Shown: positions 814 to 50,700, counted from the first letter of the stretch. The stretch is DNA of 64,000 nucleotides from Malacoraja senta (GCA_038087875.1 CM075995.1:10418001-10482000), one strand, 5' to 3'. Translations and numbers: made by a program. The notes: generated from the sequence alone by a model not told the origin.

Positions 814-856
814 GCATCTTGCCTTTCGCCACAGTGAGACATTTCCATCCCCACAG

Positions 857-1136
857 AAAACTTGGCATTGGGAGCAAGTCCGACCCAGTCCAGCACGGAT
901 GAAGGGGCAGTTGCTGAGCGAGCTAAGGACGGGAACAGCGACAGCGACTTCAGGCATGGTTCATGCGCGCGCACCAGGAAATCCAAGAACCCTTGGTGGA
1001 GAGTCGATCTAAGGGAAAGCTACAACGTTTCAGATGTAAGAATCACCAACAGAGCAGACTGCTGCTCGGATCAGCTCCAAGGAGCCGAGATCCGCATCGG
1101 GGACTCGCTGGAAAATGATGGCAATTTCAACAGACT
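857..1136 (+). CDS. F-type lectin domain 1, exon A
   Basis: ccccacag|AAAACTTGG...AACAGACT|gtaagt; 280 bp, no stop. Confidence 0.92.
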
Positions 1137-20700: not shown

Positions 20701-23700
20701 GTATGAAATAGCCAATCTACACTTCTACTTTCCCTCTTGCTCTTGCGTGTGGCTCCATTGCTCTGAGGTACAGTCTGATTTGATTGTATATTACTAGAGA
20801 AGAGTTTTCGATGCATCTCCCTTCACCACACCAAAGTAGTAGGAATATCAATGAAATGCACTGCTGATCCAAACCTTGATAGAAGGCCTAAATTCGTCGG
20901 TATTAAATAGAAACATAGAAAACAGGTGCCGGAGTAGGCCATTCCGTCATTCAAGCCAGCCCGCATTCAATATGATCATAGCTGATCATTCAAAATGAGT
21001 ACCCCGTTCATCCTTTCTCCCGTACACCTTGAATGCGTTATGCCTGATCGCTATATCTAACTCTCTTTGAAATACATCTTGCCTTTTCCATCCCCACAGA
21101 AAACGTGGCGTTAGGAGCAAGGCCGACCCAGTCCACGGATGAAGGGGCACCTGCTGAGCGAGCCAATGACGGTAACAGCAACAGCGACTTCAGGCATGGT
21201 TCATGCGCGCGCACCAGGAAATCCAACAACCCTTGGTGGAGAGTCGATCTAAAGGAAAGCTACAACGTGTCGGATGTGAGAATCACCAACAGAGCAGACT
21301 GCTGCTCGGACCAGCTCCGAGGAGCTGAGATCCACATCGGGGACTCGCTGGAAAACGATGGCAATTTCAACAGACTGTAAGTATTCATAAGCAATCGCCG
21401 AATCTAATCACCTGCGATGTCTTCTTCTACAAATTCTACTGTTACTGGAGCAAATATAACATGAGTGGGTAAAAGAAGAGAGATGCTGCACGTTACGAAT
21501 GGTTTCACAGCAGATAAAAGTAAAATTGTGCTCCTCTGCTCCAGATACGGAAGACAAAGGCACAGAGCCGTTTTCCACTTATCCAATGAATGAATGAATG
21601 AATGAATGAATGAATAAGTTTATTAGCCAAGCCACATACAAAGAATTTGCCTCGGTGCTCGACTCGCAAGTAACGACACGACATTCAGTAACAATTAACA
21701 ATGACACATAAACATTAAACATTAATAATTAAACATTATAGTTTAAATAATGAATTAAATAAAATACCAGAGAAAAAGGTGGCTACATACATTTGGTTAT
21801 TGCGTAGAGCTAATACTGGTGGGGGAAAAAAGCTGATTTCGTGGCTGGCTGTGGCGGTTTTGACTGTCCGGAATCGCCTTCCAGAGGAAATAAATATCTC
21901 TGCATAAATCTGTAATTTAAGTTAATTCAAGATATGTGATAATGAACAATTGGATTGCTGTGGCAATAGACAGGTAACTAATGCCCATGAGTAAGGATCA
22001 TGCAACATCTAGCCAGGCAATGCGGCAGTGTGTAGGAAGTAAACTGGTCCTGGTTTAAACCGAAGATATGGAATACCATGTGCGGTCAGACCGCATCATT
22101 GGAGAAAAGCAATAGGCGACGTTCCGGGTCCAGACCCTGGGGATCAGTGTCACTCATGTTATGAGTCATGCTTTGGTAGTTACGCCCACTTGCTTTTACA
22201 GTAGTCCTCCCTGCCTATTACCTTTAGAATTAGAAAGACGTGCCAGTATAAAGTTATCTATGCTATGTCGTTAATAAAGTCTTTGGACCTTTATCATGTT
22301 GTAAAGCTTCAGTTATTACAACAGCCGAAACACAACAGACCCTTCTTCAGACTGTATTCTGTCTCGACACGAAACGTCACGTATTCATTTTCTCCAGAGA
22401 TGCTCTCTGACGCGCATGGCTACCTATGTATCCGGATCTTCTCCTGATCCTAGCCATCAGTTCGTAACTGGAGCATGTGGGCAATGGCCGGAAGTAGCGG
22501 TGGGAGCCCTCCATATCCCCGGAACGTGTCATCAGTTCACCAGCTTAGGCCTAAGATTACCTTTGATACGTGTAATCATCGCATGATCGAGGCAGTGGAG
22601 GCAGTAGAGTCTCAATTGTAAATCCAATGTACTATAGACTTGCGGACTGGTGTGCAGCCAATGTAACCCCACTTTTGAAGAAAGGAGGGAGAGAGAAAAC
22701 AGGGAATGATAGACCCGTTATTCTGACATTGGTAGTGGGGGAAATGCTTGAATCGATTATTAAAGATGTAATAGCAGCGCATTCGGAAAGTAGTGACAGG
22801 ATCGATGAAAGTCAGCATGGATTTTTGAAGGGGGAATTATGCTTGACTAATCTTCTGGAATTTTATGAACAAGTAACAAGACGACTGGACAAGGGAGAGA
22901 CAGTGGAGGTGCTTTATCTGGAGCGAGTGAGCATATGCATGACAGATACAGTACAATGTGGATAAATGTGAGGTTATCCACTTTGGTGGCAAGAACAATA
23001 ATACAGATTATTATCGGACCGGTGTCCGAAAAGGAAACGGGGATGTGCAACGAGACCTCTGAGCCCTTGTACATCAGTCAATGAAAGTAAGCATGCAGGT
23101 ACGGCAGGAAGCGAAGAGAAAGTAAATATCAGTGGGGAGGATGCCGGAGTATCCACGGGAGCCCGCCACATCCCATGCACCTCTCATCAGTTCACCAGCG
23201 TAGGCCAACAAACCAGCCCAGGAATATGATTTTTTTTTAAACGCGTTCTTATCCGTAGTGATCGAGATAGTGGAGTCTCACTTTCAAACATCTCTTTCAG
23301 CTGTGGAACCGTTGATTCCGTTGCTTTGACGACACTTACCTTCAATTGTGATGGATTTATTGGTCGATATGTGAACATCTTCATTCCGGGCAATGATAAA
23401 ATCTTGACCCTGTGCGAGGTTGAGATCTTTGGTTCAAAACTTCCTTCCATCGATATCTCGTTAAAACAGGATACGAAACCTCCTTCCGCACATGAAAGGA
23501 AAAAGCTAACCACCATCAATATCCATTCACTAAATGGAACGAAACTCCCGCCTTTATTTGGAAAGGAAACGACGCCCCAGTCCGCAAAGGAAACGGAAAT
23601 ACCGAACATACCTGGAATGAACATCCCGGCACCAACCGGAAAAGAACGACCGTTCGTACCGGGAACGAATCTACCATTGGGAACTGGAACAGGTAGGCTC

Positions 23701-26700
23701 ATCGCACCGCCAAGACGTTGAGTCATTCTCAGCCACGAAATATGTCACTGATACAATTTACGGTCAGAGAGAATCATGTTAGACCGAGATTCAGTACCCT
23801 CCGACTAAAACAAATCCTCCTCATCTCCTTCCCAATGGCATATCATCTTATTCTGAATCTGTGCCCTCTGGTCCTAGATTCCCCCACAACATTCACACTA
23901 TCCAAGCAATTCACTGTCCGATAAGTTTCAATGAGATCCCCAATAATCCATTACTACTCCAGCGAATACAGGGCCCGGAACAGTCAGAAGATCTCCATAT
24001 GTTAACGTAATCATCCCACCGATCACTCTCGTAATCCTGCCCTTGACCCTCCACAATGCCAGCACAGCTCAGATATGGGGCCTAAAACAGTTCACAATAT
24101 TCCAAATGCGCTCTGCCCACTGTCTTATAAAGCCTCCACATTTGACCCCTGCTTTAATATTCTAGCTCTCTGGATATAAATGCTAACATTGAATTTGCCT
24201 TCAATTGCGATGGAATTGGTGGTCCATATGTGAACATCTTCTTGCCGGGACAGGATAAAATCTTAACCCTGTGCGAGGTTGAGGTCTTTACTTCAAAACG
24301 TCCTTCTATCCATTTCCCATTAGAACAAGGCACGGCAGCCCCGTCCGCACTTGAAACGAAAACGCACACTCCCGTCCAAATCCCGTCCGTCAAGGGAACG
24401 AAACTCCCGCCAATATCTGGAACGAAAATCCCGTCCGTAAAGGAAACGACGCCCCAGTCCGCAGAGGGAACGGTGCCCCAATCCGTAAAGGGAACGAAAA
24501 AACCGTCCATACCTGGAGCGAATATCCCGCCAACCACCGTAACGACACTTTCGTTCGTAACTGGAACAAATCTACCATCTGGAGCTGGAACAGGTAGGCC
24601 CAGTGCCCCGCTAAGGCTGTGGTTGTAGACATTGAGAAATTCTCAGCCACGAAATATCTCACTGATACTGTTTCTGAACAGATGGACTAATGTTAGCCCG
24701 AGTTTTCCTAACATCTGGTTAAAACAAATCCTCATCATCTCCTTCCGAATAGTATGTCCTTTTATTCTGCATCTGTGCCCTCTGATCCTGGATTCTCACA
24801 CTACTGGAAACGTGCTCCCTACATTCACACTAGCCAGGCTTTCCACTGTACGATGTTTCAATGTGATACCCAATGATCCACCACTACTCCAGCGAATATA
24901 GGGTCCGGAAAAGTCAACAGATCTCCATATGGTATAGCAATCATCCTTGGGATCAGTCTGGTAATCCTCCCCTGCACCCTCTGCAATGCCAGTACATCCC
25001 TCTTCAGATATGGGGACCAAAACAGTTCACAATATCCCAACCGCGCTCTGCCCAGTGCCTTATAAAGCCTCAGCATTTGACCCCTGCTTTTATATTCTAG
25101 CTCTCTGGATATAAATCCTAACAATGAATTTGCATTCCTTAATACTGGTTAAACTTGCAAATTAACCCTTTGGGAATCCAGCACCAGCACTCCCAAGTCC
25201 ATTTGCACCTCTGATTTCTGAATCTCTCCGACATTGAAAAATACTCTGCACTTTTATTTATTTTTCCAAATTGCATGATCACTCAATTTGTCATGATGTC
25301 TTCCATCTGCGACTTATTTGCCTCTCTCCCAACCCGTCCAGGTCATTCTACAGACTCGCTGCTTCCTCTGCATGACCTGGCCCTGTAGTTATCTTTGTAT
25401 TATCCGCAACATTATGTTTGGGTAAAACTTAATATCCAAACAAAGGCATTAACTGCATCATTCAAATCATTGATATACCACGTGCAAAGTGACGGACCCA
25501 ACACAAAACCCTGTGAACACCGCCACTCACTGGCAACCAACCAGAAAAAAAACATTATTCCCACTCTTTGCCTTGAATACAGCCAACGTGCTATCCATGC
25601 TGGTATCTTCCCTCTAATTCCACGGGATCTCTCCGTTACCCGACGACAGAACGGTCCTCCCTTGAGTTGTAGTGCAATCTCGATATTTTAACCTGCCTCA
25701 GCGCGGTTCTCTAGCCCTATTGCTATGATACTATAACACCACATTATACAATTTATTGTTTTATTTTTACTTTACCTGTTGCTCTTGTGTGCGGCTTCAT
25801 TGCACTGATGCACATTACGAATTGATTGTATTGTACAAAGAAGTGTTTACACTGCATCTCGCTTCACTTGACCACACTAAAGCAGAACGAATATCAATGA
25901 AACACACTGATGACCCAAACCCTGATAGCAGGACAACATCTATTGGTATTAAATCTCCCCCTTTCGGCTCATGTGAGGTGTTTCCCACCCAACAGAAAAC
26001 GTGGCGTTGGGAAGAAATTCGACCCAGTCCAGCATGGATCCACGGGCGGGTGGTGAGCGAGCCAATGACGGGAACAGCGACAGCGACTTCAGGCATGGTT
26101 CATGCGCGCGCACCATTAAATCGAAGAACCCTTGGTGGAGAGTCGATCTAAATGAAAGCTACAACGTGTCTGATGTAAGAATCACCAACAGAGCAGACTG
26201 CTGTTCGGAGCAGCTCCAAGGAGCAGAGATCCGCATCGGGGACTCGCTGGAGAACAATGGCAATTTCAACAGACTGTAAGTATACATAAGCGATCGCCGA
26301 ATCTATTCACCTGTGGTGGCTTATTCTGCAAATGCCACTGTTACTGGAGCAATGATCACATGAGTGGGTGAAAGAGAGAGATGCTGCGGGGTACGTATGA
26401 TTTCACTGCAGATAAAATTAAATTTTTGCTCCACCGCTCAAGATGCGTAACAGAACGTTACAGAGCCGTTGTCCTCTTATCCAAATGCATAAGTTGCTGC
26501 ATTATCGCTTTTGCGATGGGGTCAATGAAATGAGGTCAATAAATCTGTAATTGAATTCAAGTACTATAATATTAAAAAATCGAATTGCAGTGGCAATGTT
26601 CAAGTCACCAATGCCTATGAGTGAGAGATCATGTAGTCTCTACCCAGTCAATGATCCCTATGTATCGGAAGGAACTGCAGATACTGGTTTAAACCGAAGA

Positions 26701-29700
26701 AACCGAACACAACAATCTGGAGTTAAAGCTCTGTCCCACGGGTTTGCGGTCGTTGGCGGTGAAGCGCGGCGTCGCCGGAAGAGGGGACCGCACGGCAACC
26801 ACGAGAGCGCCGCACGGATGCTGCGCGGGGGGGGGCAAGTACGGCTGGTTCAACGAGCTTGCTGTTTCGGCTGATGACGTCTTTCGAATCGCTGGGCAGT
26901 GGCGGCGGCCGTTCCGCACACGTACCTTACTGGCGGAGGCTGTGGCGGTGCAGGTTCGACTCACGGCGCTCGTGCCTCACTGGCGGCGGCTGTGACGGCG
27001 GCCGTGCCGCACTCGTGCCTCACTGGCGGCGGCTGTGCGGTAGGGATATATTTTTGGACAGTGTTGTTTTTTTTTTAGCACCGTGAGGTGTTGGGAACAA
27101 CGCCACACGGCCCCGGAATTGTGCGTTTGACCGAGCCCGCGGTCTCTGGCGGCCCAGGAAGGGTAGATAGTTCCTGTTTCGCCCCAAATGACCGCAGACT
27201 CGTGAGACAGGCCTTTAACTCTGCGGGGGAGGATGCCGGAGTATCCACGGGAGCCCGCCACATCCCATGCACCTCTCATCAGTTCACCAGCGTAGGCCAA
27301 CAAACCAGCCCAGGAATATGATTTTTTTTAAAACGCGTTCTTATCCGTAGTGATCGAGATAGTGGAGTCTCACTTTCAAACATCTCTTTCAGCTGTGGAA
27401 CCGTTTATTCCGTTGCTTTGACGACACTTACCTTCAATTGTGATGGATTTATTGGTCGATATGTGAACATCTTTATTCCGGGCCATGATAAAATCTTGAC
27501 CCTGTGCGAGGTTGAGATCTTTGGTTCAAAACTTCCTTCCATCGATATCTCGTTAAAACAGGATACGAAACCTCCTTCCGCACATGAAAGGAAAAAGCTA
27601 ACCACCATCAATATCCATTCACTAAATGGAACGAAACTCCCGCCTTTATTTGGAAAGGAAACGACGCCCCAGTCCGTAAAGGGAACGATGCCCCAGTCCG
27701 CAAAGGAAACGGAAATACCGTACATACCTGGAATGAACATCCCGCCAAAAACCGGAAAAGAACGTGCGTTCGTACCGGGACCGAATCTACCATTGGGAAC
27801 TGGAACAGGTAGGCTCATCGCACCGCCAAGACGTCGAGGCATTCTCAGCCACGAAATATGTCACTGATACAATTTACGGTCAGAGAGAATCATGTTAGAC
27901 CGAGATTCAGTACCCTCTGACTAAAACAAATCCTCCTCATCTCCTTCCCAATGGCATGTCATCCTATTCTGAATCTGTGCGCTCTGGTCCTAGATTCCCC
28001 CACAACATTCACACTATCCAAGCCTTTCACTGTCCGATAAGTTTCAATGAGATCCCCAATAATCCATTATTACTCCAGCGAATACAGGGCCCAGAACAGT
28101 CAGAAGATCTCCATATGTTAACGTAATCATCCCACCGATCACTCTCGTAATCCTGCCCTTGACCCTCCACAATGCCAGCACAGCTCAGATATGGGGCCTA
28201 AAACTGTTCACAATATTCCAAATGCGCTCTGCCCACTGTCTTATAAAGCCTCCACATTTGACCCCTGCTTTAATATTCTAGCTCTCTGGATATAAATGCT
28301 AACATTGAATTTGCCTTCAATTGCGATGGAATTGTTGGTCCATATGTGAACATCTTCTTGCCGGGACAGGATACAATCTTAACCCTGTGCGAGGTTGAGG
28401 TCTTTACTTCAAAACGTCCTTCTATCCATTTCCCATTAGAACAAGGCACGGCAGCCCCGTCCGCACTTGAAACGAAAACGCACACTCCCGTCCAAATCCC
28501 GTCCGTAAAGGGAACGAAACTCCCGCCAATATCTGGAACGAAAATCCCGTCCGTAAAGGAAACGACGCCCCAGTCCGCAGAGGGAACGGTGCCCCAATCC
28601 ATAAAGGGAACGAAAAAACCGTCCATACCTGGAGCGAATATCCCGCCAAACACCGTAACGACACTTTCGCTCGTAACTGGAACAAATCTACCATCTGGAG
28701 CTGGAACAGGTAGGCCCAATGCCCCTCTAAGGCTGTGGTTGTAAACATTGGGAAATTCTCAGCCATGAAATATCTCACTAATACTGTTTCTGGACAGATG
28801 GACTCATGTTAGCCCGAGTTTTCCTAACATCTGGTTAAAACAAATCCTCATCATCTCCTTCCGAATAGTATGTCCTTTTATTCTGCATCTGTGCCCTCTG
28901 ATCCTGGATTCTCACACTACTGGAAACGTGCTCCCTACATTCACACTATCCAAGCCTTTCACTGTCCGATAAGTTTCAATGAGATCCCCAATAATCCATT
29001 ACTACTCCAGCGAATACAGGGCCCGGAACAGTCAGAAGATCTCCATATGTTAACGTAATCATCCCACCGATCACTCTCGTAATCCTGCCCATGACCCTCC
29101 ACAATGCCAGCACAGCTCAGATATGGGGCCTAAAACAGTTCACAATATTCCAAATGCGCTCTGCCCACTGTCTTATAAAGCCTCCACATTTGACCCCTGC
29201 TTTAATATTCTAGCTCTCTGGATATAAATGCTAACATTGAATTTGCCTTCAATTGCGATGGAATTGGTGGTCCATATGTGAACATCTTCTTGCCGGGACA
29301 GGATACAATCTTAACCCTGTGCGAGGTTGAGGTCTTTACTTCAAAACGTCCTTCTATCCATTTCCCATTAGAACAAGGCACGGCAGCCCCGTCCGCACTT
29401 GAAACGAAAACGCACACTCCCGTCCAAATCCCGTCCGTAAAGGGAACGAAACTCCCGCCAATATCTGGAACGAAAATCCCGTCCGTAAAGGAAACGACGC
29501 CCCAGTCCGCAGAGGGAACGGTGCCCCAATCCGTAAAGGGAACGAAAAAACCGTCCATACCTGGAGCGAATATCCCGCCAAACACCGTAACGACACTTTC
29601 GCTCGTAACTGGAACAAATCTACCATCTGGAGCTGGAACAGGTAGGCCCAATGCCCCTCTAAGGCTGTGGTTGTAAACATTGGGAAATACTCAGCCATGA

Positions 29701-32700
29701 AATATCACACTAATACTGTTTCCGGACAGATGGACTCATGTTAGCCCGAGTTTTCCTAACATCTGGTTAAAACAAATCCTCATCATCTCCTTCCGAATAG
29801 TATGTCCTTTTATTCTGCATCTGTGCCCTCTGATCCTGGATTCTCACACTACTGGAAACGTGCTCCCTACATTCACACTATCCAAGCCTTTCACTGTCCG
29901 ATAAGTTTCAATGAGATCCCCAATAATCCATTACTACTCCAGCGAATACAGGGCCCGGAACAGTCAGAAGATCTCCATATGTTAACGTAATCATCCCACC
30001 GATCACCCTCGTAATCCTGCCCTTGACCCTCCACAATGCCAGCACAGCTCAGATATGGGGCCTAAAACAATTCACAATATTCCAAATGCGCTCTGCCCAC
30101 TGTCTTATAAAGCCTCCACATTTGACCGCTGCTTTAATATTCTAGCTCTCTGGATATAAATGCTAACATTGAATTTGCCTTCAATTGCGATGGAATTGGT
30201 GGTCCATATGTGAACATCTTCTTGCCGGGACAGGATAAAATCTTAACCCTGTGCGAGGTTGAGGTCTTTACTTCAAAACGTCCTTCTATCCATTTCCCAT
30301 TAGAACAAGGCACGGCAGCCCCGTCCGCACTTGAAACGAAAACGCACACTCCCGTCCAAATCCCGTCCGTAAAGGGAACGAAACGCCCGCCAATATCTGG
30401 AACGAAAATCCCGTCCGTAAAGGAAACGGCGCCCCAGTCCGCAGAGGGAACGGTGCCCCAATCCGTAAAGGGGACGAAAAAACCGTCCATTCCTGGAGCG
30501 AATATCCCGCCAACCACCGTAACGACACTTTCGTTCGTAACTGGAACAAATCTACCATCTGGAGCTGGAACAGGTAGGCCCAATGCCCAGCTAAGGCTGT
30601 GGTTGTAGACATTGACAAATTCTTAGCCACGAAATATCTCACTGATACTGTTTCTGGACAGATGGACTCATGTTAGCCCGCGTTTTCCTAACACCTGGTT
30701 AAAACAAATCCTCATCATCTCCTTCCGAATAGTATGTCCTTTTATTCTGCATCTGTGCCCTCTGATCCTGGATTCTCGCACTACTGGAAACGTGCTCCCT
30801 ACATTCACACTATCCAAGCCTTTCACTGTCCGATAAGTTTCAATGAGATCCCCAATAATCCATTACTACACCAGCGAATACAGGGCCCGGAACAGTCAGA
30901 AGATCTCCATATGTTAACGTAATCATCCCACCGATCACTCTCGTAATCCTGCCCATGACCCTCCACAATGCCAGCACAGCTCAGATAAGGGGCCTAAAAC
31001 AGTTCACAATATTCCAAATGCGCTCTGCCCACTGTCTTATAAAGCCTCCACATTTGACCCCTGCTTTAATATTCTAGCTCTCTGGATATAAATGCTAACA
31101 TTGAATTTGCCTTCAATTGCGATGGAATTGTTGGTCCATATGTGAACATCTTCTTGCCGGGACAGGATAAAATCTTAACCCTGTGCGAGGTTGAGGTCTT
31201 TACTTCAAAACGTCCTTCTATCCATTTCCTATTAGAACAAGGCACGGCAGCCCCGTCCGCACTTGAAACGAAAACGCACACTGCCGTCCAAATCCCGTCC
31301 GTAATGGGAACGAAACTCCCGCCAATATCTGGAACGAAAATGCCGTCCGTAAAGGAAACGACGCCCGAGTCCGCAGAGGGAACGGTGCCCCAATCCGTAA
31401 AGGGAACGAAAAAAACGTCCATACCTGGAGCGAATATCCCGCCAACCACCGTAACGACACTTTCTTTCGTAACTGGAACAAATCTACCATCTGGAGCTGG
31501 AACAGGTAGGCCCAATGCCCAGCTAAGGCTGTGGTTGTAGACATTGACAAATTCTCAGCCACGAAATATCTCACTGATACTGTTTCTGGACAGATGGACT
31601 CATGTTAGCCCGCGTTTTCCTAACATCTGGTTAAAACAAATCCTCATCATCTCCTTCCGAATAGTATGTCCTTTTATTCTGCATCTGTGCCCTCTGATCC
31701 TGGATTCTCACACTACTGGAAACGTGCTCCCTACATTCACACTATCCAAGCCTTTCACTGTCCGATAGGTTTCAACGAGATCCCCAATAATCCATTACTA
31801 CTCCAGCGAATACAGGGCCCGGAACAGTCAGAAGATCTCCATATGTTAACGTAATCATCCCACCGATCACTCTCGTAATCCTGCCCTTGACCCTCCACAA
31901 TGCCAGCACAGCTCAGATATGGGGCCTAACACTGTTCACAATATTCCAAATGCGCTCTGCCCACTGTCTTATAAAGCCTCCACATTTGACCCCTGCTTTA
32001 ATATTCTAGCTCTCTGGATATAAATGCTAACATTGAATTTGCCTTCAATTGCGATGGAATTGGTGGTCCATATGTGAACATCTTCTTGCCGGGACAGGAT
32101 AAAATCTTAACCCTGTGCGAGGTTGAGGTCTTTACTTCAAAACGTCCTTCTATCCATTTCCCATTAGAACAAGGCTCGGCAGCCCCGTCCGCACTTGAAA
32201 CGAAAACGCACACTCCCGTCCAAATCCCGTCCGTAAAGGGAACGAAACTCCCGCCAATATCTGGAACGAAAATCCCGTCCGTAAAGGAAACGACGCCCCA
32301 GTCCGCAGAGGGAATGGTGCCCCAATCCGTAAAGGGAACGAAAAAACCGTCCATACCTGGAGCGAATATCCCGCCAACCACCGTAACGACACTTTCGTTC
32401 ATAACTGGAACAAATCTACCATCTGGAGCTGGAACAGGTAGGCCCAATGCCCTGCTAAGGCTGTGGTTGTAGACATTGAGACATTCTCAGCCACGAAATA
32501 TCTCACTGATAATGTTTCTGGACTGATGGACTCATGTTAGCCCGAGTTTTCCTAACATCTGGTTAAAACAAATCCTCATCATCTCCTACCGAATAGTATG
32601 TCCTTTTATTCTGCATCTGTGCCCTCTGATCCTGGATTCTCACACTACTGGAAACGTGCTCCCTACATTCACATTAACCAGGCCTTCCACTGTACGATGT

Positions 32701-35700
32701 TTCAATGTGATACCCAATGATCCACCACTACTCCAGCGAATATAGGGTCCGGAGAAGTCAACAGATCTCCATATGGTATACCAATCATCCATGGGATCAG
32801 TCTGGTAATCCTCCCCTGGACCCTCTACAATGCCAGTACATCCCTCCTCAGATATGGGGACCAAAACAGTTCACAATATCCCAACCGCGCTCTGCCCAGT
32901 GCCTTATAAAGCCTCAGCATTTGACCCCTGCTTTTATATTCTAGCTCTCTGGATATAAATCCTAACAATGAATTTGCATTCCATAATACTGGTTCAACTT
33001 GCAAATTAACCCTTTGGGAATCCAGCACCAGCACTCCCAAATCCATTTGCACCTCTGATTTCTGAATCTCTCCCACATTGAAAAACACTCTGCACTTTTA
33101 TTTATTTTTCCAAATTGCATGATCACTCAATTTGTTATGATGTCTTCCATCTGCGACTTATCTGCCTCTCTCCCAACATGTCCAGGTCATTCTACAGACT
33201 CGCTGCTTCCTCTGCATGACCTGGCCCTCCAGTTATCTTTGTATTATCCGCAACATTAAGTTTGGGTAAAACTTAATATCCAAACAAAGGCATTAATTCC
33301 ATCATTCAAATCATTGATATACCACGTGCAAAGTGACGGACCCAACACAAAACCCTGTGAACACCGCCACTCACTGGCAACCAACCAGAAAAAAAACATT
33401 ATTCCCACTCTTTGCCTTCAATACAGCCAACGTGCTATCCATGCTGGTATCTTCCCTCTAATTCCACGGGATCTCGCCGTTACCCGACGACAGAACGGTC
33501 CTCCCTTGAGTTGTAGTGCAATCTCGATATTTTAACCTGCCTCAGCGCGGTTCTCAGACTAATGTTCTCTAGCCCTATTGCTATGATACTATAACACCAC
33601 ATTATACAATTTATTGTTTTATTTCTACTTTACCTGTTGCTCTTCTGTGCGCCTTCATTGCACTGATGCACATTACGAATTGATTGTATTGTACAAAGAA
33701 GTGTTTACACTGCATCTCGCTTCACTTGACCACACTAAAGCAGAACGAATATCAATGAAACACACTGATGACCCAAACCCTGATAGCAGGACAACATCCA
33801 TTGGTATTAAATCTCCCCCTTTCGGCTCATGTGAGGTGTTTCCCACCCAACAGAAAACGTGGCGTTGGAAAGAAGTTCGACCCAGTCCAGCATGGATCCA
33901 CGGGCGGGTGCTGAGCGAGCCAATGACGGGAACAGCGACAGCGACTTCAGGCATGGTTCATGCGCGCGCACCATTAAATCGAAGAACCCTTGGTGGAGAG
34001 TCGATCTAAAGGAAAGCTACAACGTGTCTGATGTAAGAATCACCAACAGAGCAGACTGCTGTTCGGAGCAGCTCCAAGGAGCAGAGATCCGCATCGGGGA
34101 CTCGCTGGAGAACAATGGCAATTTCAACAGACTGTAAGTATACATAAGCGATCGCCGAATCTATTCACCTGTGGTGGCTTATTCTGCAAATGCCACTGTT
34201 ACTGGAGCAATGATCACATGAGTGGGTGAAAGAGAGAGATGCTGCGGGGTACGTATGATTTCACTGCAGATAAAATTAAATATTTGCTCCACCGCTCAAG
34301 ATGCGTAACAGAACGTTACAGAGCCGTTGTCCTCTTATCCAAATGCATGAGTTGCTGCATTATCGCTTTTGCGATGGGGTCAATGAAAGGAGGTCAATAA
34401 ATCTGTAATTGAATTCAAGTGCTATAATATTAAAAAATCGAATTGCAGTGGCAATGTTCAAGTCACCAATGCCTATGAGTGAGAGATCATGTAGTCTCTA
34501 TCCAGTCAATGATCCCTATGTATCGGAAGGAACTGCAGATACTGGTTTAAACCGAAGAAACCGAACACAACAATCTGGAGTTAAAGCTCTGTCCCATGGG
34601 TTTGCGGTCGTTGGCGGTGAAGCGCGGCGTCGCCGGAAGAGGGGACTGCACGGCAACCACGAGAGCGCCGCACGGATGCTGCGCGGGGGGGGCAAGTACG
34701 GCCGGTTCAACGAGCTTGCGGTTTCGGTTGATGACGTCTTTCGAATCGAGGGGCTGTGGCGGCGGCCGTGCCGCACACGTACCTCACTGGCGGAGGCTGT
34801 GGCGGTGCAGGTTCGACTCACGGCGCTCGTGCCTCACTGGCGGCGGCTGTGATGGCGGCCGTGCCGCACTCGTGCCTCACTGGCGGCGGCTGTGCGGTAG
34901 GAACATATTTTTTGGTGTGGACAGTGTTGGGTTTTTTTTAGCACCGTGAGGTGTTGGGAACAACGCCGCACGGCCCCGGAATTGTACGTTTGACCGAGCC
35001 CGCGGTCTCTGGCGGCTCAGGAGGGGTAGGTAGTTCCTGTTTCGCCGCCAATGACCGCAGACTCGTGAGACAGGCCTTTAACTCTGCGGGTCAGACACCA
35101 CTGCTGGAGAAAATAAATAGGTGACGTTTCGTGTCAAGACCTTCCTTCAGATTGAACTGAGTCTGAAAAATGGTCTCGATACGAAACGTCACATACTATT
35201 TTTCGCCAAAGATGTTGTCAGAGCCGCAAGGCAACCTATGTATCCGGATCTGCTTCTGCTCCGAGCCATTTGTTCGGAACACGAGCAAGTGGATACGATG
35301 CCGGAGGTTACGTGGGAGCCCCACATTTCCCCGGGACCTGTCACCAGTTCGCTCTCACAGGCCTGGAATAACCTTTAGCACGCTGCCTTGCAGCATTATT
35401 GTGAGATTGACGTCTCACCTTTAAATCCTCATAATTTCAGCTGTGGAATCTTTGAATCAGTTTCGGGGACTTCAATTGTGGAGGATCTGTCGGTCGATAT
35501 GTGAACGTCATCATCACAGGCCCGGATAAAATTTTGACCCGGTGCGAGGTTGAGAATTCCACAAGTTCACAACTCTCTGGGTGAAAAAGTGTTTCCTCAT
35601 CTCTAAATGGCCTAATTCTTATACGGTAGCCCCTGGTTCTGGACTCCCCCAACATCGAGAACATGTTTCCTGCATCTAGCGTGACCAATCCCTTAAAAAT

Positions 35701-38700
35701 GTAATATGTTTCGATGACATAACCTCTCATCCTTCTAAATTTCAGTGAGTACAAGCCCAGTCGCTCCATTCTTTCAGCATATGACTGTCCCGCCATCCCG
35801 GGAATTAACCTCGTGAATCTATGCTACACTGAATCAATGGCAAGGATGTCGTTCCTCAAATTAGGAGACCAAAACTGCACACAATACTCAGATGTGGTCT
35901 CTCCAGGGCCCTGTACAACTGCAAAAGGACCGCTTTGCTCCTGTGCTCAACTCTCTTTATGAAGGCAAACATGCCATGAGATTTCTTCACTGCCTGTTGT
36001 ATACCTCCTTGCTTACTTTCAGTGACTCATGTACAAGGACACCCAGGTCTCGTTGTACTTTCCATTTTCCCAACTGGACACCATTCAGATAATAATCTCC
36101 TTCCCTTCTCTAACTTCACATTTATCCACATCATACTGCATCTGCCACGCATCTGCCCACTCACCCAACCTCCTCACAGCATCCCCCACACAGTTCACAC
36201 TGCCATCCAGCTTTGTCACATCTGCAAATTTGCTAATGTTACTTTTAATTCCTTCATCTTAATGATTAATATATGTTGTAAAAAGCTGCGGTCCTAGCAC
36301 CGAGCCTTGCGGTACACCACTAGTCACTGCCTGTCATTCTGAAAGGAACCCGTTAATCCCTACTCTTTGTTATCTGTCTGCCAACCAGTTTTTCTATCCG
36401 TCAATACTCTACCCCTGATACCATATGCTCTAATTTTGCCCACTAATCTCCTGTGCTGGACCTTACCAAACGCGTTTTGAAAGTCCAGGTACACTACATC
36501 CACTGGCTCTCCCTTGTCCATTTTACTTGTTACATCCTCATAAAATTCCAGAAGCTTTGTCAAGCATAATTTCCCCTTCGTAAATCCATGCTGACTTGGG
36601 CCGATCCTGTTACTGCTATCCAAATGTGCCGCTATTTCATCTTTGCTAATCGACTCCAGCGTTTTCCCCACCACCGGTCAGGCTAACTGATCTATAATTC
36701 CCTGCGTTCTCACTCCCACCTTCCTCCAAACGTGGGATAACATCAGCTACCCTCCAATCCCCAGGAACTGATCCTGAACAAATGGAACATAGGAAACTGA
36801 TCACCAATGCTTCCACGATTTCGAGAGCCACTTCCTTGAATACCCTGTGATGCAGACAATCGGGCCCTGTGGGTTTATCAGCTTTCAGTCCCTTCAGTCT
36901 ACCCAACACAATTTCCTGACTAATATGAATTTCTTTCAGTTCCTCCATCAGCCAATATCATCTGTCGCCAAGTACATCTGGGAGATTGTCTGTGTCTTCC
37001 TTCGTGAAGACAGAACCAAAGTACCCGTTCAACTCGTTTGCCATTTCCTTGTTCCTTGTTCACCTGTTTCTGTCTTCAAGGGACCTACATATGTCTTAAT
37101 TATTTTTATCCTCTTCACATACCAAAATAAGATTATACTATCCTTCTTTATATTGTTGGCTAGCTTACCTTCGTACTTTATCTTTTCTCCACGTATTGCC
37201 TTTTTAGTTATATTCTGTTGTTCTTTAAACGTTTCCCAATCCTCTGGCTCCCGCTCATCTTTGCTATGTTATACTTCTCTTTAATGTTTATACTGTACTT
37301 GACTTTCCTTGTCAGCCACAGTTGCCTCTTACTTCAGTTAAAATCTTTCTTCCTCTTTGGAATGTAATGATCCTGCATCTTCTGTACTATTCCCAGAAAT
37401 ACCTACCATTATTGTTCCACCGTCATCCCTGCTAGGGTTCTTTTACAGAAGTTGGCCAGCTCCTCCCGCATGGCTCCATAGTCCCATTTGTTCAACTGCA
37501 ATACTGACACTTCCGATTTTACCTTCTCCCTTTCAAATTGCAGATTAAAACGTAGCATATTATGGTCACATCCTCAGTCACAACCTCCTAATGGTTCCTA
37601 CACCTTGAGTTCCCTAGTCAAATCCGGTGCATTACATAAAACTACATCCAAAATAGCTTGCTCTCTGGTTGGCTGCTCCAAGAATCCATCTCGGTGGTAC
37701 TCCACAAACTCCGTTTGTTGGGGTCCAGTACCATCCTGATTTACCTAGTCGACCTGCATGTTGAAATCTCCCATAATCGCCGTTATATGACCTTTGCGAC
37801 ATGATCATTTTAACTCCTGATGCAATTTGCCACATATCTGCAGGCTACTGTTTGGGGGCCTGTACATAACTCCCATTCTGGTATTTTTACCCTTACAATT
37901 TCTCAGATCTATCCTCAATGACCCTACATCTTCTGATTCTATGCCACCCCTCGCAAGGGATTGAATTTCATTCCTGACCAACGGAGCCACCCCACGCCCT
38001 CTGCCCACCTGTCTGTCTTTTCGATAGAACGTATACCCCTGAATATTCAGTTCCCAGCTCTGATCTCCTTGCAGCCATGACTGTAATACCCACAACATCA
38101 TACTCACCAATTTCTAGCTGAACCTTAAGTTCTTCCACTTTATTTCTTGTACTTCGTGCATTTATATATAACACGTTTAATTCGGTATTCACCTCTCCTC
38201 TCCCACCGAATACTTTTTCACCTAACCTTACACTCTTATCCCTTCCTGAACTTTCCGTCCCATTAATTAGGGAGTCTTTCGTAACTTTTCCTGGATTCTC
38301 TTCCCCTTTAACCCCATCCTCATTCTTCAATTTGCAACCCCCCTTCCCCGCTGTTTAGTTTAGTGTAATCAGTCTGATGAAGAGGCTCGACCCGAAACGT
38401 CACATATACCTTTTCCCCAGGGACGCTATCTGATCAGTTTCTTCTTATCGAGTCCACACACAAGATTAGAAGTTGTTCAGCCAGTTGAACACACGTCTCG
38501 GCATCTGCATACAATGTGTCTGTCTTGTGTTTCTTGTGCTTCTTGTGCGTGATGGTGGAAAGATTGGTGAAACAGGGCCGTGACGTGAACGCTCTTTCCT
38601 TGACACTGTCTGCCCAGCAAGTCTACCCATGTATCAGGGACCTCTACTGTTCCTAGCCATCTGTTAGGAACACGAGCAAGTGGATACGATGCCGGCTATT

Positions 38701-41700
38701 GCCGTGGTAACCCCACTATCCACGCAACGTGTCACCAGTACATCGGCACATGCCTGTGATAACATTTTACGCATGATGGAGACAGTGGAATCTCACGTTT
38801 AAATCCTCATCTTTTTCAGCTGTGGAATCGTTGATTCCGTTTCTGGGACGACGTTGACCTTCAATTGCGGTGGAATTGTTGGTCAATATGTGAACATCGT
38901 CATCCCAGGCCCGGATAGAATTTTAACCCTGTGCGAGGTTGAGATATTTGGTTCAGAACTCCCGCACTTACATGGAAAAGGTAGGCTGAACTTCCCACTG
39001 GTGCTCCGGTGGTTCACTGCCCCATAGCTTAGTTGAGCAATTCTCCTGCTGATGAAGTCTGTGTATAACTACCTAACTGAAACCCCGTACCGTCTCTGAC
39101 AACGATCTGCTATTTCCCATTGTTGGTTTACTCGCCAGTCGTGGACCATCGCCTTGTCCGAACCTGAGCCTGTCCTTTAATGAAAAATCAGAGAGTCGGT
39201 GCACACGCGGTCATCCATTTCGTCCGGAGACATTAGGCTGACACCAACAAAGTCAGACACCAACAAAATCACGCCAATTGAAACACGCTTGAAGCGCATC
39301 TCTCCGTTAACAGATTACTGCACGGTCCTCCCTAGAGTTGTAGAGCAATCACGATATTTTAACGTGCCTCAGCGCAGTTCTTGGACTTATTTTCTATAGC
39401 TTTCTAGATATAATACTATAACACCATGTGGTGCAATCTGTTGTTTCAATTCTACTTCACCATTACTGCATTCTCCCCATATCCCTTCAATCCGTCATCC
39501 CTGAGATTTATATGTAACTCTCTCTTAAATACATCTTGCCTTTCGGCTCAGTAGGACGTTTTCATCCCCACAGAAAACTTGGCGTTGGGAGCAAGTCCGA
39601 CCCAGTCCAGCACGGATGAAAGTGCAGCTGCTGAACGAGCCATTGACGGGAACAGCGATAGCGACTTCAGGCATGGTTCATGCGCGCGCACCAGGAAATC
39701 CAAGAACCCTTGGTGGAGAGTCGATCTAAATGATACCTACCTCATATCAGATGTGAGAATCACCAACAGAGCAGACTGCTGCTCGGACCAGCTCCAAGGA
39801 GCCGAGATTCGCATCGGGGACTCGCTGACGCACGATGGCAATTTCAACAGACTGTAAGTATTCATAAGCATTCGCCGTATCTATTCACCTGCGGTGTCTT
39901 CTACGAATTCCACTGCTACTGGAGCAATAATAACATGAGTGGGTAAAAAAGAGAGATGCTGCAGGTGGCGAATGGTTTCGCTGCGGGTTAAATAAAAAAA
40001 TGTCCTCCTCTGCTTCGGATGCGTGAGACAATGATACAGAGCCGTAGTCCACTAATCCAATGGCACGAGGTGCTGCATTATCGCTTTAGCGACGCGGGTT
40101 CATAAAAGGAGGTGCATAAATCTGTAATTGAAGTTAATTCAAGTTATGTAATTCTGAACCATCAGATTGCAGTGTCAATGTTCAATTAACCAATGCCAAT
40201 GAGTGTGGTTCATGTGGGCTCGATCCACTCAGCGCTATCTGTGTGTCCGAACGAACTGCAGATGCAGGTTTAAACCGAAGATATACACATAAACTGGAGA
40301 AACTAAGCGGGTTGGACAGGAACTATGGAGAAAAGGAATAGCTGACGTTTCGGGTCGAGACCGTCCTTCAGTGTGAAGAAGGGTCCCATCCCGAAACGTC
40401 ACCCATCCCTTTTTCTCCAGAAATGTTGCCTGACCCGCAAGGCCTCCTGTGTATCCGGAACCTTTCCTGTTCCTAGCCAACGGTTCGGAACACGAGCATA
40501 TGGATACGATTCCTGCTATTGCCGCGAGAGCCCCACATATCCGCAGAACGTGTCATCAGTACACCAGCACAGGCCTATGATAACATTTGACATGCTTCTT
40601 CATATGCGCGATCGAGACAGTGGAGTCTCTCCTTAAATCCCTCTTATTTTGTAGCTGTGGAACCGTTGATCCAGTTTCTTGGACGACATTGACCTTCTAT
40701 TGCGGTGGCATCGTCGGTCGATATGTGAACATCATCATCCCAGGCCCGGATAAAACTTTAACCCTGTGCGAGGTCGAGATATTTGGTTCAGAAGTCCCGT
40801 ACTTACATGGAAAAGGTAGGCTGAACTTCCCGAAGAGGCGCTGGTTTAACACAGCCGCACAACTTAGTGGAGCGATTCTCCCGCTGATAAAGTTTGAGGA
40901 TAACTTCCTTATTGAAGCCCAGTACCGTCTCTCCAAACGCTCTGTTCTTTGCTATTCGTAGTTTTGTCGCCGGTATTGGACCCGCGTTGTGTCCGAACAT
41001 GAGCCACAGTGCGTGTTCATGAAATCCCTGAGACACGCAGTGCACACGCTGTCATCCATTTCGTCCGGGGAACTTATGCTTATAAACACCAGCCACGCAC
41101 CAACAAAATACACACCTAATGAAGAGTATCACCCTCCTATTAGAGTCCAAACTTTAGTTGTACAATCCCAATATTTTAACGCCTCAGTGGGGTGCTTGGT
41201 CATATTTTCTGTAATCGTAAATCCATAACACTGCAACAACATACCATGAAATCTATTGATTTGTCTACTTTACCTGTTGCTCTAGTGTGCGGATTCATTG
41301 CCCTGATGTACAGTATGACTAGATTTGATAGTAGAGACGACAGAGTTCACTACATCTCACTTCACTTCGCCATATAAAGCAATGCAAATATCAATGAAAT
41401 ACACTGCTAATACAAACCTTGATAGGCCAACATCCATCGTTAATAAACCTCCCCCTTTCGCGTCAATGAAGCTTTTCAACCCAACAGAAAACGTGGCGTT
41501 GGGAGCAACGCCGAGCCAATCCAGCACGGATGAACAGGCAGTTTGTGAGCGAGCCAATGACGGTAATAGCGACAACGACTTCAGGCATGGTTCATGTGCG
41601 CGTACCAGTAAATCCAAGAACCCTTGGTGGAGAGTTGATCTAACGGAAAGCTACAACGTGTCAGACGTAAGGATCACCAACAGAGCAGACTGCTGCTCCG

Positions 41701-44700
41701 ACCAGCTCCAAGGAGCCGAGATCCGCATCGGGGACTCGCTGGAGAATTATGGCAATTCCAACAGACTGTAAGTATTCAGAAGCAATCACCGACTGCGGTG
41801 TCTTCTTGTGCAAATTCCATTGTTACAGGCGCAATGATAAAAATGAATGTGGAAAACAGATGCTGCAGGTTAAGAATGGTCTCACTGCAGTTGAAATAAA
41901 AATTGTGCTGCGCTGATCCAGATGCGAAAAATAAAAGCAAAACTATTTTCCAGTTAACATAGAAACATAAAAATAGGTGCAGGAGTAGGCCATTCGACCC
42001 TTCGAGCCTGCACCGCCATTCGATATGATCATGGCCGATCATCCAACTCAGTATCCCATCCCTGCCTTCTCTCCATACCCCCTGATCCCTTTAGCCACAA
42101 GGGCCACATCTAACTCCCTCTTAAATATAGCCAATGAACTGGCCTCAACTACCTTCTGTGGCAGAGGATTCCACAGATTCACCACTCTCTGTGTAAAAAA
42201 ATGATTTTCTCATCTCGGTCCTAAAAGACTTCCCTCTTATCCTTAAACTGTGACCTTTAGTTCTGGACTTCCCCAACATCGGGAATAATCTTCCTGCATC
42301 TAGCCTGTCCAACCCCTTAAGAATTTTGTAAGTTTGTATAAGATCCCCCCTCAATCTTCCAAATTCCAGCGTGTACAAGCCGAGTCTTAATTAGTGGCTG
42401 CTGCCGTACCACTATCGCGATTGGTTCATTAAAAAGGAGGTGCTTAAATCAGAAATTGATGTTAATTGAAGTCATGTAATACTGAATAATCGGATTGCAC
42501 TGGCAATGTTCACGTAACCAATGACTATGAGTGAGAATAATTGCAGGCTCGAACTATTCAGGGCTACCTATGTGAAGGAACGACCTGCAGATGCAGGTTT
42601 AAACCGAAGATAGACACAATAAGCTCAAGCAACTCAGCAGGTCGGACATCAAAAATGGAGAAAATGAATAGCAGACGTTTCGGGATGAGACCCTCCTCCA
42701 GTGTATTCAGTCTAAAGAAGGATTGTCGACCCAATACGTCACCTATTCCTTTTCTCCAGAGATGGTGTCTGACCCGCAAGGTCTTCTATGTACCCGGAAC
42801 CACTCCTGTTGCTCGCCATCTGTTCGGAACACGAGCAAGTTTATACGAAGCCGGCAATTGCCGTGGGAGCACCACACATTCGCGGAACGCGTCATCAGTA
42901 CACCAGCAGCGCCCTGCGATAGCCTTCCTCATTCGCATGATCGAGACAGTGGAGTCTCACCTTTAAAATCATCATCTTTTTCAGCTGTGGAATCGTTGAT
43001 GCGGATTTCGGGCCGAAATTGATCTTCAATTGCGGTGGATTTATCGGTCGATATGTGAACATCATCATCCCAGGCCCGGATAAAATCTTAACCCTGTGCG
43101 AGGTTGAGATATTTGGTTCAGAACTCCCGTACTTACATGGAAAAGGTAGGATGAACTTCCCGCTGAGGCTCTAGTTGTACACAGCCCCACAACTTAGCTA
43201 AGCGATTCTCCCGCTGATAAAGTCTGAGTATAAGTTCCCGATTGAAGCCCAGAACAGTCACTCGCAACGCTCTGGTCTTTGCCATTCGTAGTTTACTCGC
43301 TAGTCTTGGACTCTCGCTGTGTCCGAACACGAGCCTGTCTGTTCATAACATCCCTGAGACGGTCGGTACATTCGCCGTCAACCATTTCGTCGCAGACATT
43401 ATGCAGACAAACACCAGCCACGCTCCAAAAAATACACTTCTATCGAAGCACGCTTATAGAGTATCTTCCCGTTACCCGACTACATAGCGGTCCTCCCTTG
43501 AGTTGTAGTGCAATCCCGATTTTTATCCTACCTCATCGCGGTTCGCAGACTAATGTTGCCCAGCCCTATTGCTATAATACTATGACACCATGTTATGCAA
43601 TCTATTGTTTTCTTTCTACTTTACCTGTTGCTCTTGTGTGCGGCTTAATTGTACTGATGTGCAGTATGATTTGTTTGTATAGCACAAAGAAGTGTTTGCG
43701 TTGCATTGCACTTCACTTGACCACACTCAATGAGAACGAATATCAATGCAATACACTGTTGACCCTAACCCTGATAGCAGGCCGACATCCATTGGTATTA
43801 AATACCCCCGTTTCAGTCCAGTGGGATGTTTCTCGCCCAACAGAAAACGCGGCGTTGGGATATTTGTTTAGGAACTCCCGTCCTTACATGGAAAACTTAG
43901 ACTGAAGTATCCGCTGAGGCTCTGGTTGTTCACAGACCCACAGCTTAATTGAGAGAATCTCCCGTTGATAATGTTTGAGGATAATAACCTTACTGAAGCC
44001 AAGTACCCAACGCTCTGCGTTTTACCATTCTTAGTTTAATCGCCAGTCTTGGACCATCCCTTTGTCCAAGCATGAACCTGTCTACAAATGCATTGCCTGA
44101 GAGATACGGTGCACATGTGGACATCCATTCAGCCCGGAGACCTCATGCTGATAGGCACCCACCACGCACCAACGAAATGCACACCTAATGAAACTCGATT
44201 GAAGAGTATCACTCTGCTATCATACTATTGAACTGTGCTATCTTTGAACTGTACTATTGAACTGTGCTACCAATTGGTGTATGTGACAATACATGTCCTT
44301 TGTCCTTTGTCCTTTTGTCCTTTTGTCCTATGTTGAGTAGTAGCGCAAACTCAATCTTTTAACGCGTCAGTGCGGTGTATAAACGTAAATCCAAAACATT
44401 GTAACAACATACCATGAAATCTATTGATTCTTCAACTTTACCTGGTGCTCTTGTCTGCGGCTTCATGGCACTGATGTACAGTATGATTTGATTCGATAGT
44501 AGAGACGATGGAATTCACTACATATCGCTTCACTTGATCATCGTATTCAATACGAATATCAATGAGATATCCTGCTATTCCATACCGGGTTATTACCGAA
44601 GGACTACATCCGTCGGTAATAAATCTCACCCCTTCGGCTCAGTGAGGTGTTTCCTACCCTACAGAAAACGTGGCGCTGGAATCAAGGCCGACTCAGTCCA

Positions 44701-47700: not shown

Positions 47701-50700
47701 AATATAAACGCGGAAATAATCAATATTTTAAATATTTTCAAATATGCGACTATTTGAAAAAATATACAAAAGATCATTATAATAACCCAGTAGATGTATT
47801 GGACGAGGCAATGCAGATAAAAGCGGAATCAGCAAACTTAATATCATATTTGTATAATATTATTTTAAATGTACAAATACCACCTACGGAGGGTATCAGA
47901 AGAGACTGGGAACAAGAGTTAGCTATTAAAATTTCAAAGGAAAGTTGGAATGAATACTTATTAAACGTGCATAAATGCTCGATTAATGTAAGACACACTT
48001 TAATACAATTTAAAATTTTACATAGATTATATTATTCGAAAACTAAAATTCATAAAATTTTCCCAAATGTATCATCTATTTGTGATAAATGTCAATCCCA
48101 AGAAGCTGCTATAGCGCACTCATTCGTCTTCTGTACAAAAATTCAAAAATTTTGGAATGAAAGTTTTGAAATCTTTACAAAGTTATTTAAAACAAGACTG
48201 ATACCCAAAGCAGAATGGATTATCTTCGGAATAACGGAAGATGATCCAGAACTAAATGTGTTTCAAAAGAAATTAATGGACTATGGGTTAATAACTGGAA
48301 AAAAGCTAATTCTAAAATTTTGGAAGAAGGCTCCAATACCAACTATAAATATGTGGATTTCAAATATGTTTGAAACATTACACCTAGAAGAGATACGACT
48401 CCTCCTAGCAGGTAAACCAGATCACTTCCACCTGACGTGGTCTGCATTTATAGAATTATTACAAACATAGGGTGCAAAAGTACTTTAAAAAAAATAAAAA
48501 ATTGAGGTCAGGTAAGGGGGGATGATAGTTGAAGGGTTGGTATGTCCTATTTACGTAATGCTCAAAAAAATATATTTTTTTCTTTTTTTTTCCCTCTCTC
48601 TCTTTCTCTTTTTTTTCCTAGGGCCTATTTCTTAACTCTTTTTCTTTTGTTTTTAATTTCGCTCTTATAGGGTCTTCGTCCTTTTTTGTTGTTACATTTT
48701 CTACACTTTTCTACACTTTCACTTTTTCCTTCACTTTCTTCTTTCTTTCAATCTTTTCCTTTTCTAGTGTAAAAAAATAAATAAAGGGAGTACATTAATT
48801 GTAAGAAGATATAAATGACGAGTATTAATGTATGTGGTTGTAATGTAATGTACTTCTAATAAATAAAAATTAAAAAAAATTAAAATAAAAAAAAAGAAAA
48901 GGAATAGCAGACGTTTCGGGTCGAGACCCTCCTTCAGCGTATCAGTCTCCAGGGACGATGTCTGACCCGCAAGGCTACTTATCTATCCGCAACCTCCGCT
49001 GTTCTGAACAGGAGCAAGAGGATACGATGCCGTCAATTGCCGCGGGAGCACCACATATCCCTGGAATGTTTCATCAGTGCACCACCACCGGCCTACTATA
49101 ACTTTTGATACGCTTCCTCTTACGCACGATCGAGACAATGGCATCTTACCTTTACATACTCATCTTTTTTAGCTGTGGGGTCGTTGATTCTGTTTCTGGG
49201 AAGACATTGACTTTCAATTGCGGTGGATTTGTCGGTCGATATGTGAACATCATCATCCCAGGCCCGGATCAAATCTTAACCCTGTGCGAGGTTGAGATAT
49301 TTGGTTCAAAACTTCCTGCTACTCATATCCCGTTAGAACAGGACACGACACCCCCGTCCGCACCTGAAACGGAAGAGCAAACTCCCGTCCATATCCCGTC
49401 CGTAAAGGGAACGGAACACCCGCCAATATCTGGAAACAAACTCCCGTTCATACCTGGAACGAAAATCCCGCCAACAACCGGAAAGAAGGTTTCGTCTGTA
49501 TCTGGAGCTATTCTCCGGCCCGTACCTGGAACAAATCTACCATCTGCAACTGAAACAGGTAGGCTCAACGCCCCGCTAAGGCTGTGATTGTAGACACTGA
49601 GGCATTCTCAGACATGCAATCTCTCACTGATACTATTTCTGATGGAGGGAATCACGTTAGCCCGAGATTCACTACCCTCTGGCTAAAACAAATCCTCCTC
49701 ATCTCCTTCCTAATGGTATGTCCTTTTATTCTAAATATGTGCCCTTTGGTCCTAGACTCTCCCACTACTGCCAACTTGCTCCCTACATTCACACTATCCA
49801 GGTATTCACACTATCTCCATATGTTAACGTAATCATCCCACCGATCACTCTCGTAATCCTGCCCTTGACCCTCCACAATGCCAGCACAGCTCAGATATGG
49901 GGCCTAAAACAGTTCACAATATTCCAAATGCGCTCTGCACACTGTCTTATAAAGCCTCCACATTTGACCCCTGCTTTAATATTCTAGCTCTCTGGATATA
50001 AATGCTAACATTGAATTTGCCTTCAATTGCGATGGAATTGGTGGTCCATATGTGAACATCTTCTTGCCGGGACAGGATAAAATCTTAACCCTGTGCGAGG
50101 TTGAGGTCTTTACTTCAAAACGTCCTTCTATCCATTTCCCATTAGAACAAGGCACGGCAGCCCCGTCCGCACTTGAAACGAAAACGCACACTCCCGTCCA
50201 AATCCCGTCCGTAAAGGGAACGAAACTCCCGCCAATATCTGGAACGAAAATCCCGTCCGTAAAGGAAACGACGCCCCAGTCCGCAGAGGGAACGGTGCCC
50301 CAATCCGTAAAGGGAACGAAAAAACCGTCCATACCTGGAGCGAATATCCCGCCAACCACCGTAACGACACTTTCGTTCGTAACTGGAACAAATCTACCAT
50401 CTGGAGCTGGAACAGGTAGGCCCAATGCCCCGCTAAGGCTGTGGTTGTAGACATTGAGAAATTCTCAGCCACGAAATATCTCACTGATACTGTTTCTGGA
50501 CTGATGGACTCATGTTAGCCCGAGTTTTCCTAACATCTGGTTAAAACAAATCCTCATCATCTCCTTCCGAATAGTATGTCCTTTTATTCTGTGCCCTCTG
50601 ATCCTGGATTCTCACACTACTGGAAACGTGCTCCCCACATTCACACTATCCAGGCCTTCCACTGTACGATGTTTCAATGTGATACCCAATGATCCACCAC

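Follow-up and report, generated by a model that had tools for sequence, protein, structure and literature searches.

Seven truncated copies of a lectin exon, each fused at its 5′ end to a piece of a long interspersed nuclear element (LINE), lie in a stretch of 64,000 nucleotides from the skate Malacoraja senta (GCA_038087875.1, CM075995.1:10418001-10482000; hereafter the window). The window holds part of a tandem F-type lectin gene that spans ~270 kb and encodes each domain by two exons, A and B; the truncated copies, designated B′, are additional to this alternation. That they arose through a deletion, followed by unequal crossing-over, has good support and is very probable. Their sequence changes look neutral, and they are tentatively read as unselected passengers that would mostly be skipped during splicing, a fate that falls somewhat short of being probable.

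Structure of the B′ copies

All seven B′ exons are 428 nt long, start at a phase-2 AG|C, keep an open frame and end at a GTAGGC donor. They differ pairwise by 1-12 nt per 428, with splice sites nearly constant across the seven, and five of them form an array at 932-bp spacing. The features of the array and its surroundings are as follows.

24166..24593, plus strand: single B′, following the long B at 23301
25996..26275, plus strand: exon A8 (280 nt, from phase 1 to phase 2), which codes for the N-terminal portion of an F-type lectin domain
27393..27808, plus strand: exon B8, an intact long B with linker
27809..28281, plus strand: intron from B8 to B′, 473 nt, ending in a truncated antisense LINE
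28282..28709, plus strand: B′ array copy 1, 428 nt from the LINE-derived AG, phase 2 to 1
28282..28318, minus strand: LINE-derived 5′ part of B′, 32 nt plus a 5-bp microhomology at 28314-28318 common to exon B, the likely deletion breakpoint
28710..29213, plus strand: chimeric spacer, 504 nt, resembling the intron that follows the last B′ over its initial ~240 nt and the B8-B′ intron over the remainder, an apparent footprint of unequal crossover
29214..29641, plus strand: B′ array copy 2, 428 nt
30146..30573, plus strand: B′ array copy 3, 428 nt
31078..31505, plus strand: B′ array copy 4, 428 nt
32010..32437, plus strand: B′ array copy 5, 428 nt
32945..33450 (end approximate), minus strand: uninterrupted LINE continuation, carrying the same AG and lacking a strong donor pattern over 700 nt; further copies at 25101 and 50917
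33854..34133, plus strand: exon A9
49988..50415, plus strand: single B′, following the long B at 49173 (segmental duplicate)

A sequence-only reading of the window had reported seven stop-free copies, five of them at this spacing, and all seven coordinates, starts, donors and frames bear it out; the loss of the first exon-B cysteine and the motif GPYV instead of GRYV are likewise seen in all seven, and the junction of A8 with B′ is in frame as claimed.

The first 32 nt of B′ match a dispersed antisense repeat whose genome-wide copies show ~80% identity. The minus strand of this repeat is reverse-transcriptase-like (ESM Atlas 0.95), with a Pfam RVT_1 match at E = 0.11 that fails the cut-off. 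The earlier description of these nucleotides as antisense CR1 fits the dispersed, reverse-transcriptase-like repeat; the clade is presumably CR1. A 22-nt motif placed by the same reading in one repeat near 25093 is indeed present there, and has 10 occurrences in the window, seven in B′ and three in uninterrupted repeats (25095, 32939 and 50911). The LINE AG itself has 13 pyrimidines of 17, a branch-point-like motif at -21 and an AG-free zone of 31 nt. Since this acceptor-like AG is also found in uninterrupted LINE copies, it was inherited rather than selected or built for B′.

An assembly artefact was considered as the source of the array and is disfavoured because the copies differ at 2-12 of 428 nt and the spacers are chimeric.

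Probable origin by deletion and amplification

The switch from LINE to exon B in every B′ falls on a 5-bp word common to a paralogous intact LINE copy and exon B. As in a bipartite exon, the breakpoint lies inside the exon and joins two distant parts at this microhomology, and the acceptor is contributed by a retrotransposon, here the dispersed, reverse-transcriptase-like repeat. In Leucoraja erinacea, the predicted protein XP_055506251.1 reads through the matching intron, in which the LINE is uninterrupted and followed by an A exon. The microhomology junction and the uninterrupted Leucoraja LINE therefore indicate that a deletion likely took out an A exon and the true B acceptor; it would have run from the LINE in one unit's intron into exon B of the next unit. 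The best match in a genome search for an intact parent of B′ reached 80%, and so the parent survives only as B′.

Amplification would have followed by crossing-over within the shared ancestral intron, giving the five-copy array. The mismatches of the spacer change parent near nt 230-240, and the LINE parts of the two related introns are 84% identical. The single copies at 24166 and 49988, which sit in segmental duplicates of 94-98% identity, would have arisen by segmental duplication. Further decayed fragments are present in the same gene.

The event is of a known kind. A deletion-made bipartite exon in COL4A5 (PMC5441408) resembles B′ in that the breakpoint lies inside the new exon, that the acceptor, polypyrimidine tract and branch site come from a LINE, and that inclusion introduces a stop. 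B′ differs from it in that its 3′ portion derives from a genuine exon whose donor it retains, in occurring as seven copies in a reference assembly and in holding an in-frame internal acceptor; its inclusion would be a possibility only.

Several other features of the region concern duplication or annotation. The interval 34718-46065 is duplicated at 52642-64000 with an 18-kb period and 98.5% identity, and an array of 2.1-kb tandem units occupies the window start (1-10186). The B exon at 49173 (49173-49558) is a chimera, its 5′ part like the short B at 64491 and its linker like the long B near +74 kb (L029:992). The NCBI model XP_055506251.1 of the Leucoraja homologue is probably mis-spliced, because it runs through introns and takes in LINE-derived peptide, and skate arrays of this kind may be poorly annotated.

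Neutral-looking change and possible skipping of B′

On the six edges of a spanning tree, the B′ copies differ by 4 synonymous and 17 non-synonymous changes (ratio 1.48, compatible with neutrality at p = 0.62). In recent A exons the changes number 18 synonymous and 22 non-synonymous (0.34), a ratio from which B′ departs at p = 0.003. A dN/dS comparison, of the kind that had been proposed as a check, is not decisive here: the B′ ratio looks neutral, unlike that of recent A exons, but constitutive long-B linkers look alike (2 synonymous to 9 non-synonymous changes, 1.53, in five intact long B exons), and recent short B exons have 4 to 14 (1.11). Nor do the stop-free frames count as evidence for use. 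Given 21 changes and a local frameshift rate of 8 non-triplet indels per 214 substitutions, chance would leave every one of the seven frames open with a probability of ~0.22.

These data are consistent with B′ being truncated exon-B remnants fused to LINE that are mostly skipped, so that the mature mRNA would read A8-B8-A9. Occasional use of the LINE AG would be lost to nonsense-mediated decay, and occasional use of a second AG inside B′ would be harmless because it is in frame. LINE sequence recruits splicing repressors in mammals (PMC6108849). The earlier caveat that the copies may be inert passengers of recent duplication gains support. Protein searches for B′ gave two matches among 503 longer candidates, both intact long-B skate sequences, and none among 29 candidates of similar length; no B′-type protein was seen among the inspected matches, drawn from the best 150 of 200. 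Two aligned sequencing runs cover the introns and are uninformative on splicing, with no exon-exon joint among the 15 of 164 joints listed.

Several observations weigh against skipping. B′ retains a genuine donor and two acceptors that resemble real ones (13 and 14 of 17 pyrimidines, versus a mean of 12.2 for 44 true B acceptors), and these splice sites are nearly unchanged in all seven copies. Among human disease mutations, cryptic-site activation rather than skipping is the tendency when the exon is larger and contains decoy sites (PMC2095810), and in COL4A5 the exon that a deletion had furnished with a LINE acceptor showed full inclusion (PMC5441408). Nor is the neutral ratio a discriminating one, since the linkers of intact long B exons, like the recent short B exons, give similar values. 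Finally, exons downstream of the first B′ carry 2 synonymous to 12 non-synonymous changes, versus 19 to 25 upstream (Fisher p = 0.06). Cryptic 3′ splice-site activation (PMC2095810) is a close parallel, in that an exon loses its authentic acceptor and keeps its donor and decoy AGs. If skipping does hold, the locus illustrates ordinary repeat-gene turnover, and it warns that open frames and matching phases in young duplicates do not prove a splicing cassette.

An internal acceptor and possible spacer exons

The sequence-only reading missed an internal phase-1 acceptor at 28440, in frame after either B or B′, which defines the following candidate.

28440..28709, plus strand: candidate internal exon, 270 nt, phase 1-1, encoding Pro/Thr/Ser-rich linker only (43% P/T/S); other starts at 24324, 29372, 30304, 31236, 32168 and 50146

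The claim that B′ could be used only as an alternative to B or as a poison exon is false, because this AG yields an in-frame 270-nt exon after B. If the spliceosome used it, each B′ would add a 270-nt phase 1-1 exon, and up to five 90-aa Pro/Thr/Ser-rich segments, in any number and with no need for mutual exclusion, would make the likely O-glycosylated stalk after domain 8 longer. This reading is somewhat unlikely. Among the 15 AGs listed in B′, the last of which is the exon's own end, the one ahead of 28440 is preceded by the best tract, with pyrimidines at 14 of 17 positions, together with a 38-nt AG-free zone and a possible branch point at -34. Only 0.9% of 2689 intronic AGs attain this combination, acceptors having been judged on simple features and a general branch-point pattern. 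A message joining B8, two internal exons and A9 reads without a stop. Use of the internal AG would also account for the decay of lectin-coding residues ahead of it while all linkers remain open: Arg to Pro is fixed, and two sites at which about 30 of 31 B exons agree show Val to Gly and Lys to Thr variants.

The same internal AG also occurs in long B exons that are intact: the one at 49173, another near +74 kb and five upstream. Its use after A would shift the frame in these exons, and it is therefore normally ignored. Of the tract changes specific to B′, one improves the site and one worsens it, and the branch-point motif of the upstream LINE AG, at -21, is more typically placed. The searches also gave no protein joining B to a B′ linker, a weak point since they were length-limited. 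A deletion scar could in this way have become a new exon class by a phase switch, the phase-2 acceptor being lost, the internal phase-1 AG adopted and the exon amplified into a variable-number array of mucin-like spacers, a sequence of events that is possible and on the doubtful side. Stalk length would then depend on copy number and splicing, and use of the internal acceptor would be a clean natural case of exon birth by phase switching, yielding symmetric spacer modules.

Possible use of the LINE acceptor as a poison or terminator site

Splicing of B8 to B′ at the LINE AG gives A-L-W-I-stop, as the earlier reading had predicted, after four codons including the junction codon and not three. 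Used after B7 (the 24166 copy) or B8, this acceptor would have the transcript degraded or end the protein after ~41 domains, an outcome judged rather improbable. The branch-point-like motif and AG-free zone of the LINE AG favour it, as does the COL4A5 precedent (PMC5441408). So does the neutrality-compatible pattern of recent duplicates downstream of the first B′, unlike that upstream, and both decayed B exons lie downstream. The contrast between upstream and downstream exons has p = 0.06, however, and past the first B′ both the A exons and the intact B exons still have open frames and GT-AG sites and alternate strictly. Of the 12 downstream amino-acid changes, only 5 affect 90%-conserved positions, against an expectation of ~69%; a single N-terminal position accounts for three of them, and the core Cys, Trp, Arg and Asp residues are all spared. 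Gene conversion could also give such a pattern.

The proposed mutually exclusive cassette

The sequence-only reading had put forward the array as a mutually exclusive cassette in which A8 splices to B8 or to one of the five B′ exons, so varying the domain. Tandem duplication is the usual origin of mutually exclusive exons (PMC6071210), the B′ exons are tandem homologues of equal start and end phase when the LINE AG is used, the phases match at A8|B′ and B′|A9, and the frames are open. The cassette is nevertheless poorly supported and very improbable, given the domain-breaking changes, the absence of a detected exclusion mechanism and a substitution pattern that looks neutral.

Alignment of the skate domain to eel agglutinin (1K12) indicates that an A-B′ domain would lack the Cys108 equivalent and carry Pro at the Arg131 equivalent, and would thus not be an intact alternative domain. 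The 108-124 disulfide, the Asp64-Arg131 salt bridge and the strand 126-136 of eel agglutinin are structurally important (PMC5712786). The first Cys is present in 56 of 56 intact B exons, and the Arg position of GRYV holds 53 Arg, 3 Gln and no Pro; among 483 homologous halves identified by pattern in retrieved proteins, Pro is never found there and the first Cys is lost alone in 9. The B′ copies differ almost solely in the linker, and the sugar-binding triad positions lie in exon A.

Described exclusion mechanisms comprise short introns, mixed spliceosomes, decay and competing RNA structures (PMC6071210). The introns here, of 473 and 504 nt, are not too short, and all are GT-AG, which argues against mixed U2/U12 exclusion. 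With 200-nt flanks and 12 shuffles each, docker/selector pairing scored -33.1 against shuffles of -27.8 to -39.5, and further values of -22.0 and -23.8 were within their shuffles, so that the best duplexes on both sides are within shuffled ranges. Double inclusion through the LINE AG meets a stop after B, and through the internal AG it does not. Compared with Dscam-type docker/selector clusters or tandem duplicated exon pairs, B′ shares tandem homologous exons of equal phase and shows no docker pairing, short intron, mixed spliceosome type or intact alternative domain, and no clear sign of purifying selection.

Inverted-repeat arms of 70-81% complementarity (22641-23117 with 35984-36763; 45327-46139 with 54275-55092) flank both blocks that hold B′ and decayed B exons. 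Their pairing could loop the blocks out, and splicing of A 21100 to B 38820, or of A 44665 to B 56757, would be in frame. This flanking may be chance because other inverted pairs are common in the window.

The host gene

Exon A is 280 nt long, runs from phase 1 to phase 2 and matches Pfam PF00754/PF22633; exon B is a short form of 161 nt, or a long form of 386-434 nt with a Pro/Thr/Ser linker, and ends in phase 1. The fold-family match and the design of two exons per domain with phase-1 flanks, as described for F-type lectins (PMC12221842), place the gene in this family. A skate homologue aligns to eel agglutinin 1K12 at E = 5e-29, and also to 3CQO. The closest named homologues of the window gene are skate proteins; the genome comprises 1.94 Gb.

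Over ~270 kb the gene holds 55 A exons, 56 intact B exons, 7 B′ and 2 decayed B exons, a tally based on 65 B-pattern matches less one duplicate from overlapping loci and plus one intact B that the pattern missed (67371). Once B′ and the two decayed B exons are set aside, the two exon types follow each other in strict alternation, and a stop is reached in the last B alone; the chain is inferred to form one transcript. No A exon or gene start was found within 32 kb upstream of the first B. The B exons that interrupt or restore the alternation past A9 are as follows.

35441..35555, plus strand: decayed B with a frameshifting deletion, its donor gone through a repeat insertion and its acceptor intact; a copy lies near 53359
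38820..38980, plus strand: intact B, restoring A/B alternation past the decayed B

Both decayed B exons (35441-35555 and near 53359) keep the acceptor and have lost the donor, and the next exon after each is an intact B rather than an A, so that here, too, one A is followed by two B acceptors.

The chain of ~56 F-type lectin domains extends over C19 ~10,250,000-10,519,400, or -168 kb to +101 kb relative to the window, and as one transcript would encode a product of roughly 8,000 aa or more. Among tandem F-type lectins, striped bass FBP32, the multi-domain fucolectin of Xenopus tropicalis and oyster bindin have the two-exon, phase-1 design in common with the skate gene. FBP32 has 2 domains, bindin 1-5, and the best Xenopus match, which is the best database match, 12 matched stretches, far fewer than in the skate chain. 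In oyster bindin, domain number varies by recombination and splicing, and a retroposon lies beside a repeat (PMC5712786). The skate gene differs from these tandem lectins in that its B′ units are half-domains and in the fucose motif of A8, which departs from the F-type form HX24RXDX4(R/K) (PMC5712786): Arg replaces the His, and Gln stands in for the final basic residue. In most A exons, likewise, His52 is replaced by Arg and Arg86 mostly by Gln, and this altered motif suggests that fucose binding may be changed or lost in most domains.

The skin mucus of a catshark contains a protein with an F-type domain (PMC10707392), which suggests where transcripts might be sought. No publication on the locus, or on a skate F-type lectin gene of such size, was found in a search of mostly open literature. 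A host gene with ~56 F-type lectin domains may be of greater interest than the B′ copies.

Further F-type lectin A exons, some with stops, occur at C19:10,706,093-10,758,929, at C19:9,590,695 and on the small contigs C4015, C4391, C4537 and C854. MITE-like elements of ~500 bp with 44-nt terminal inverted repeats lie in the A8-B8 intron (26720-27221) and the A9-B9 intron (34578-35084).

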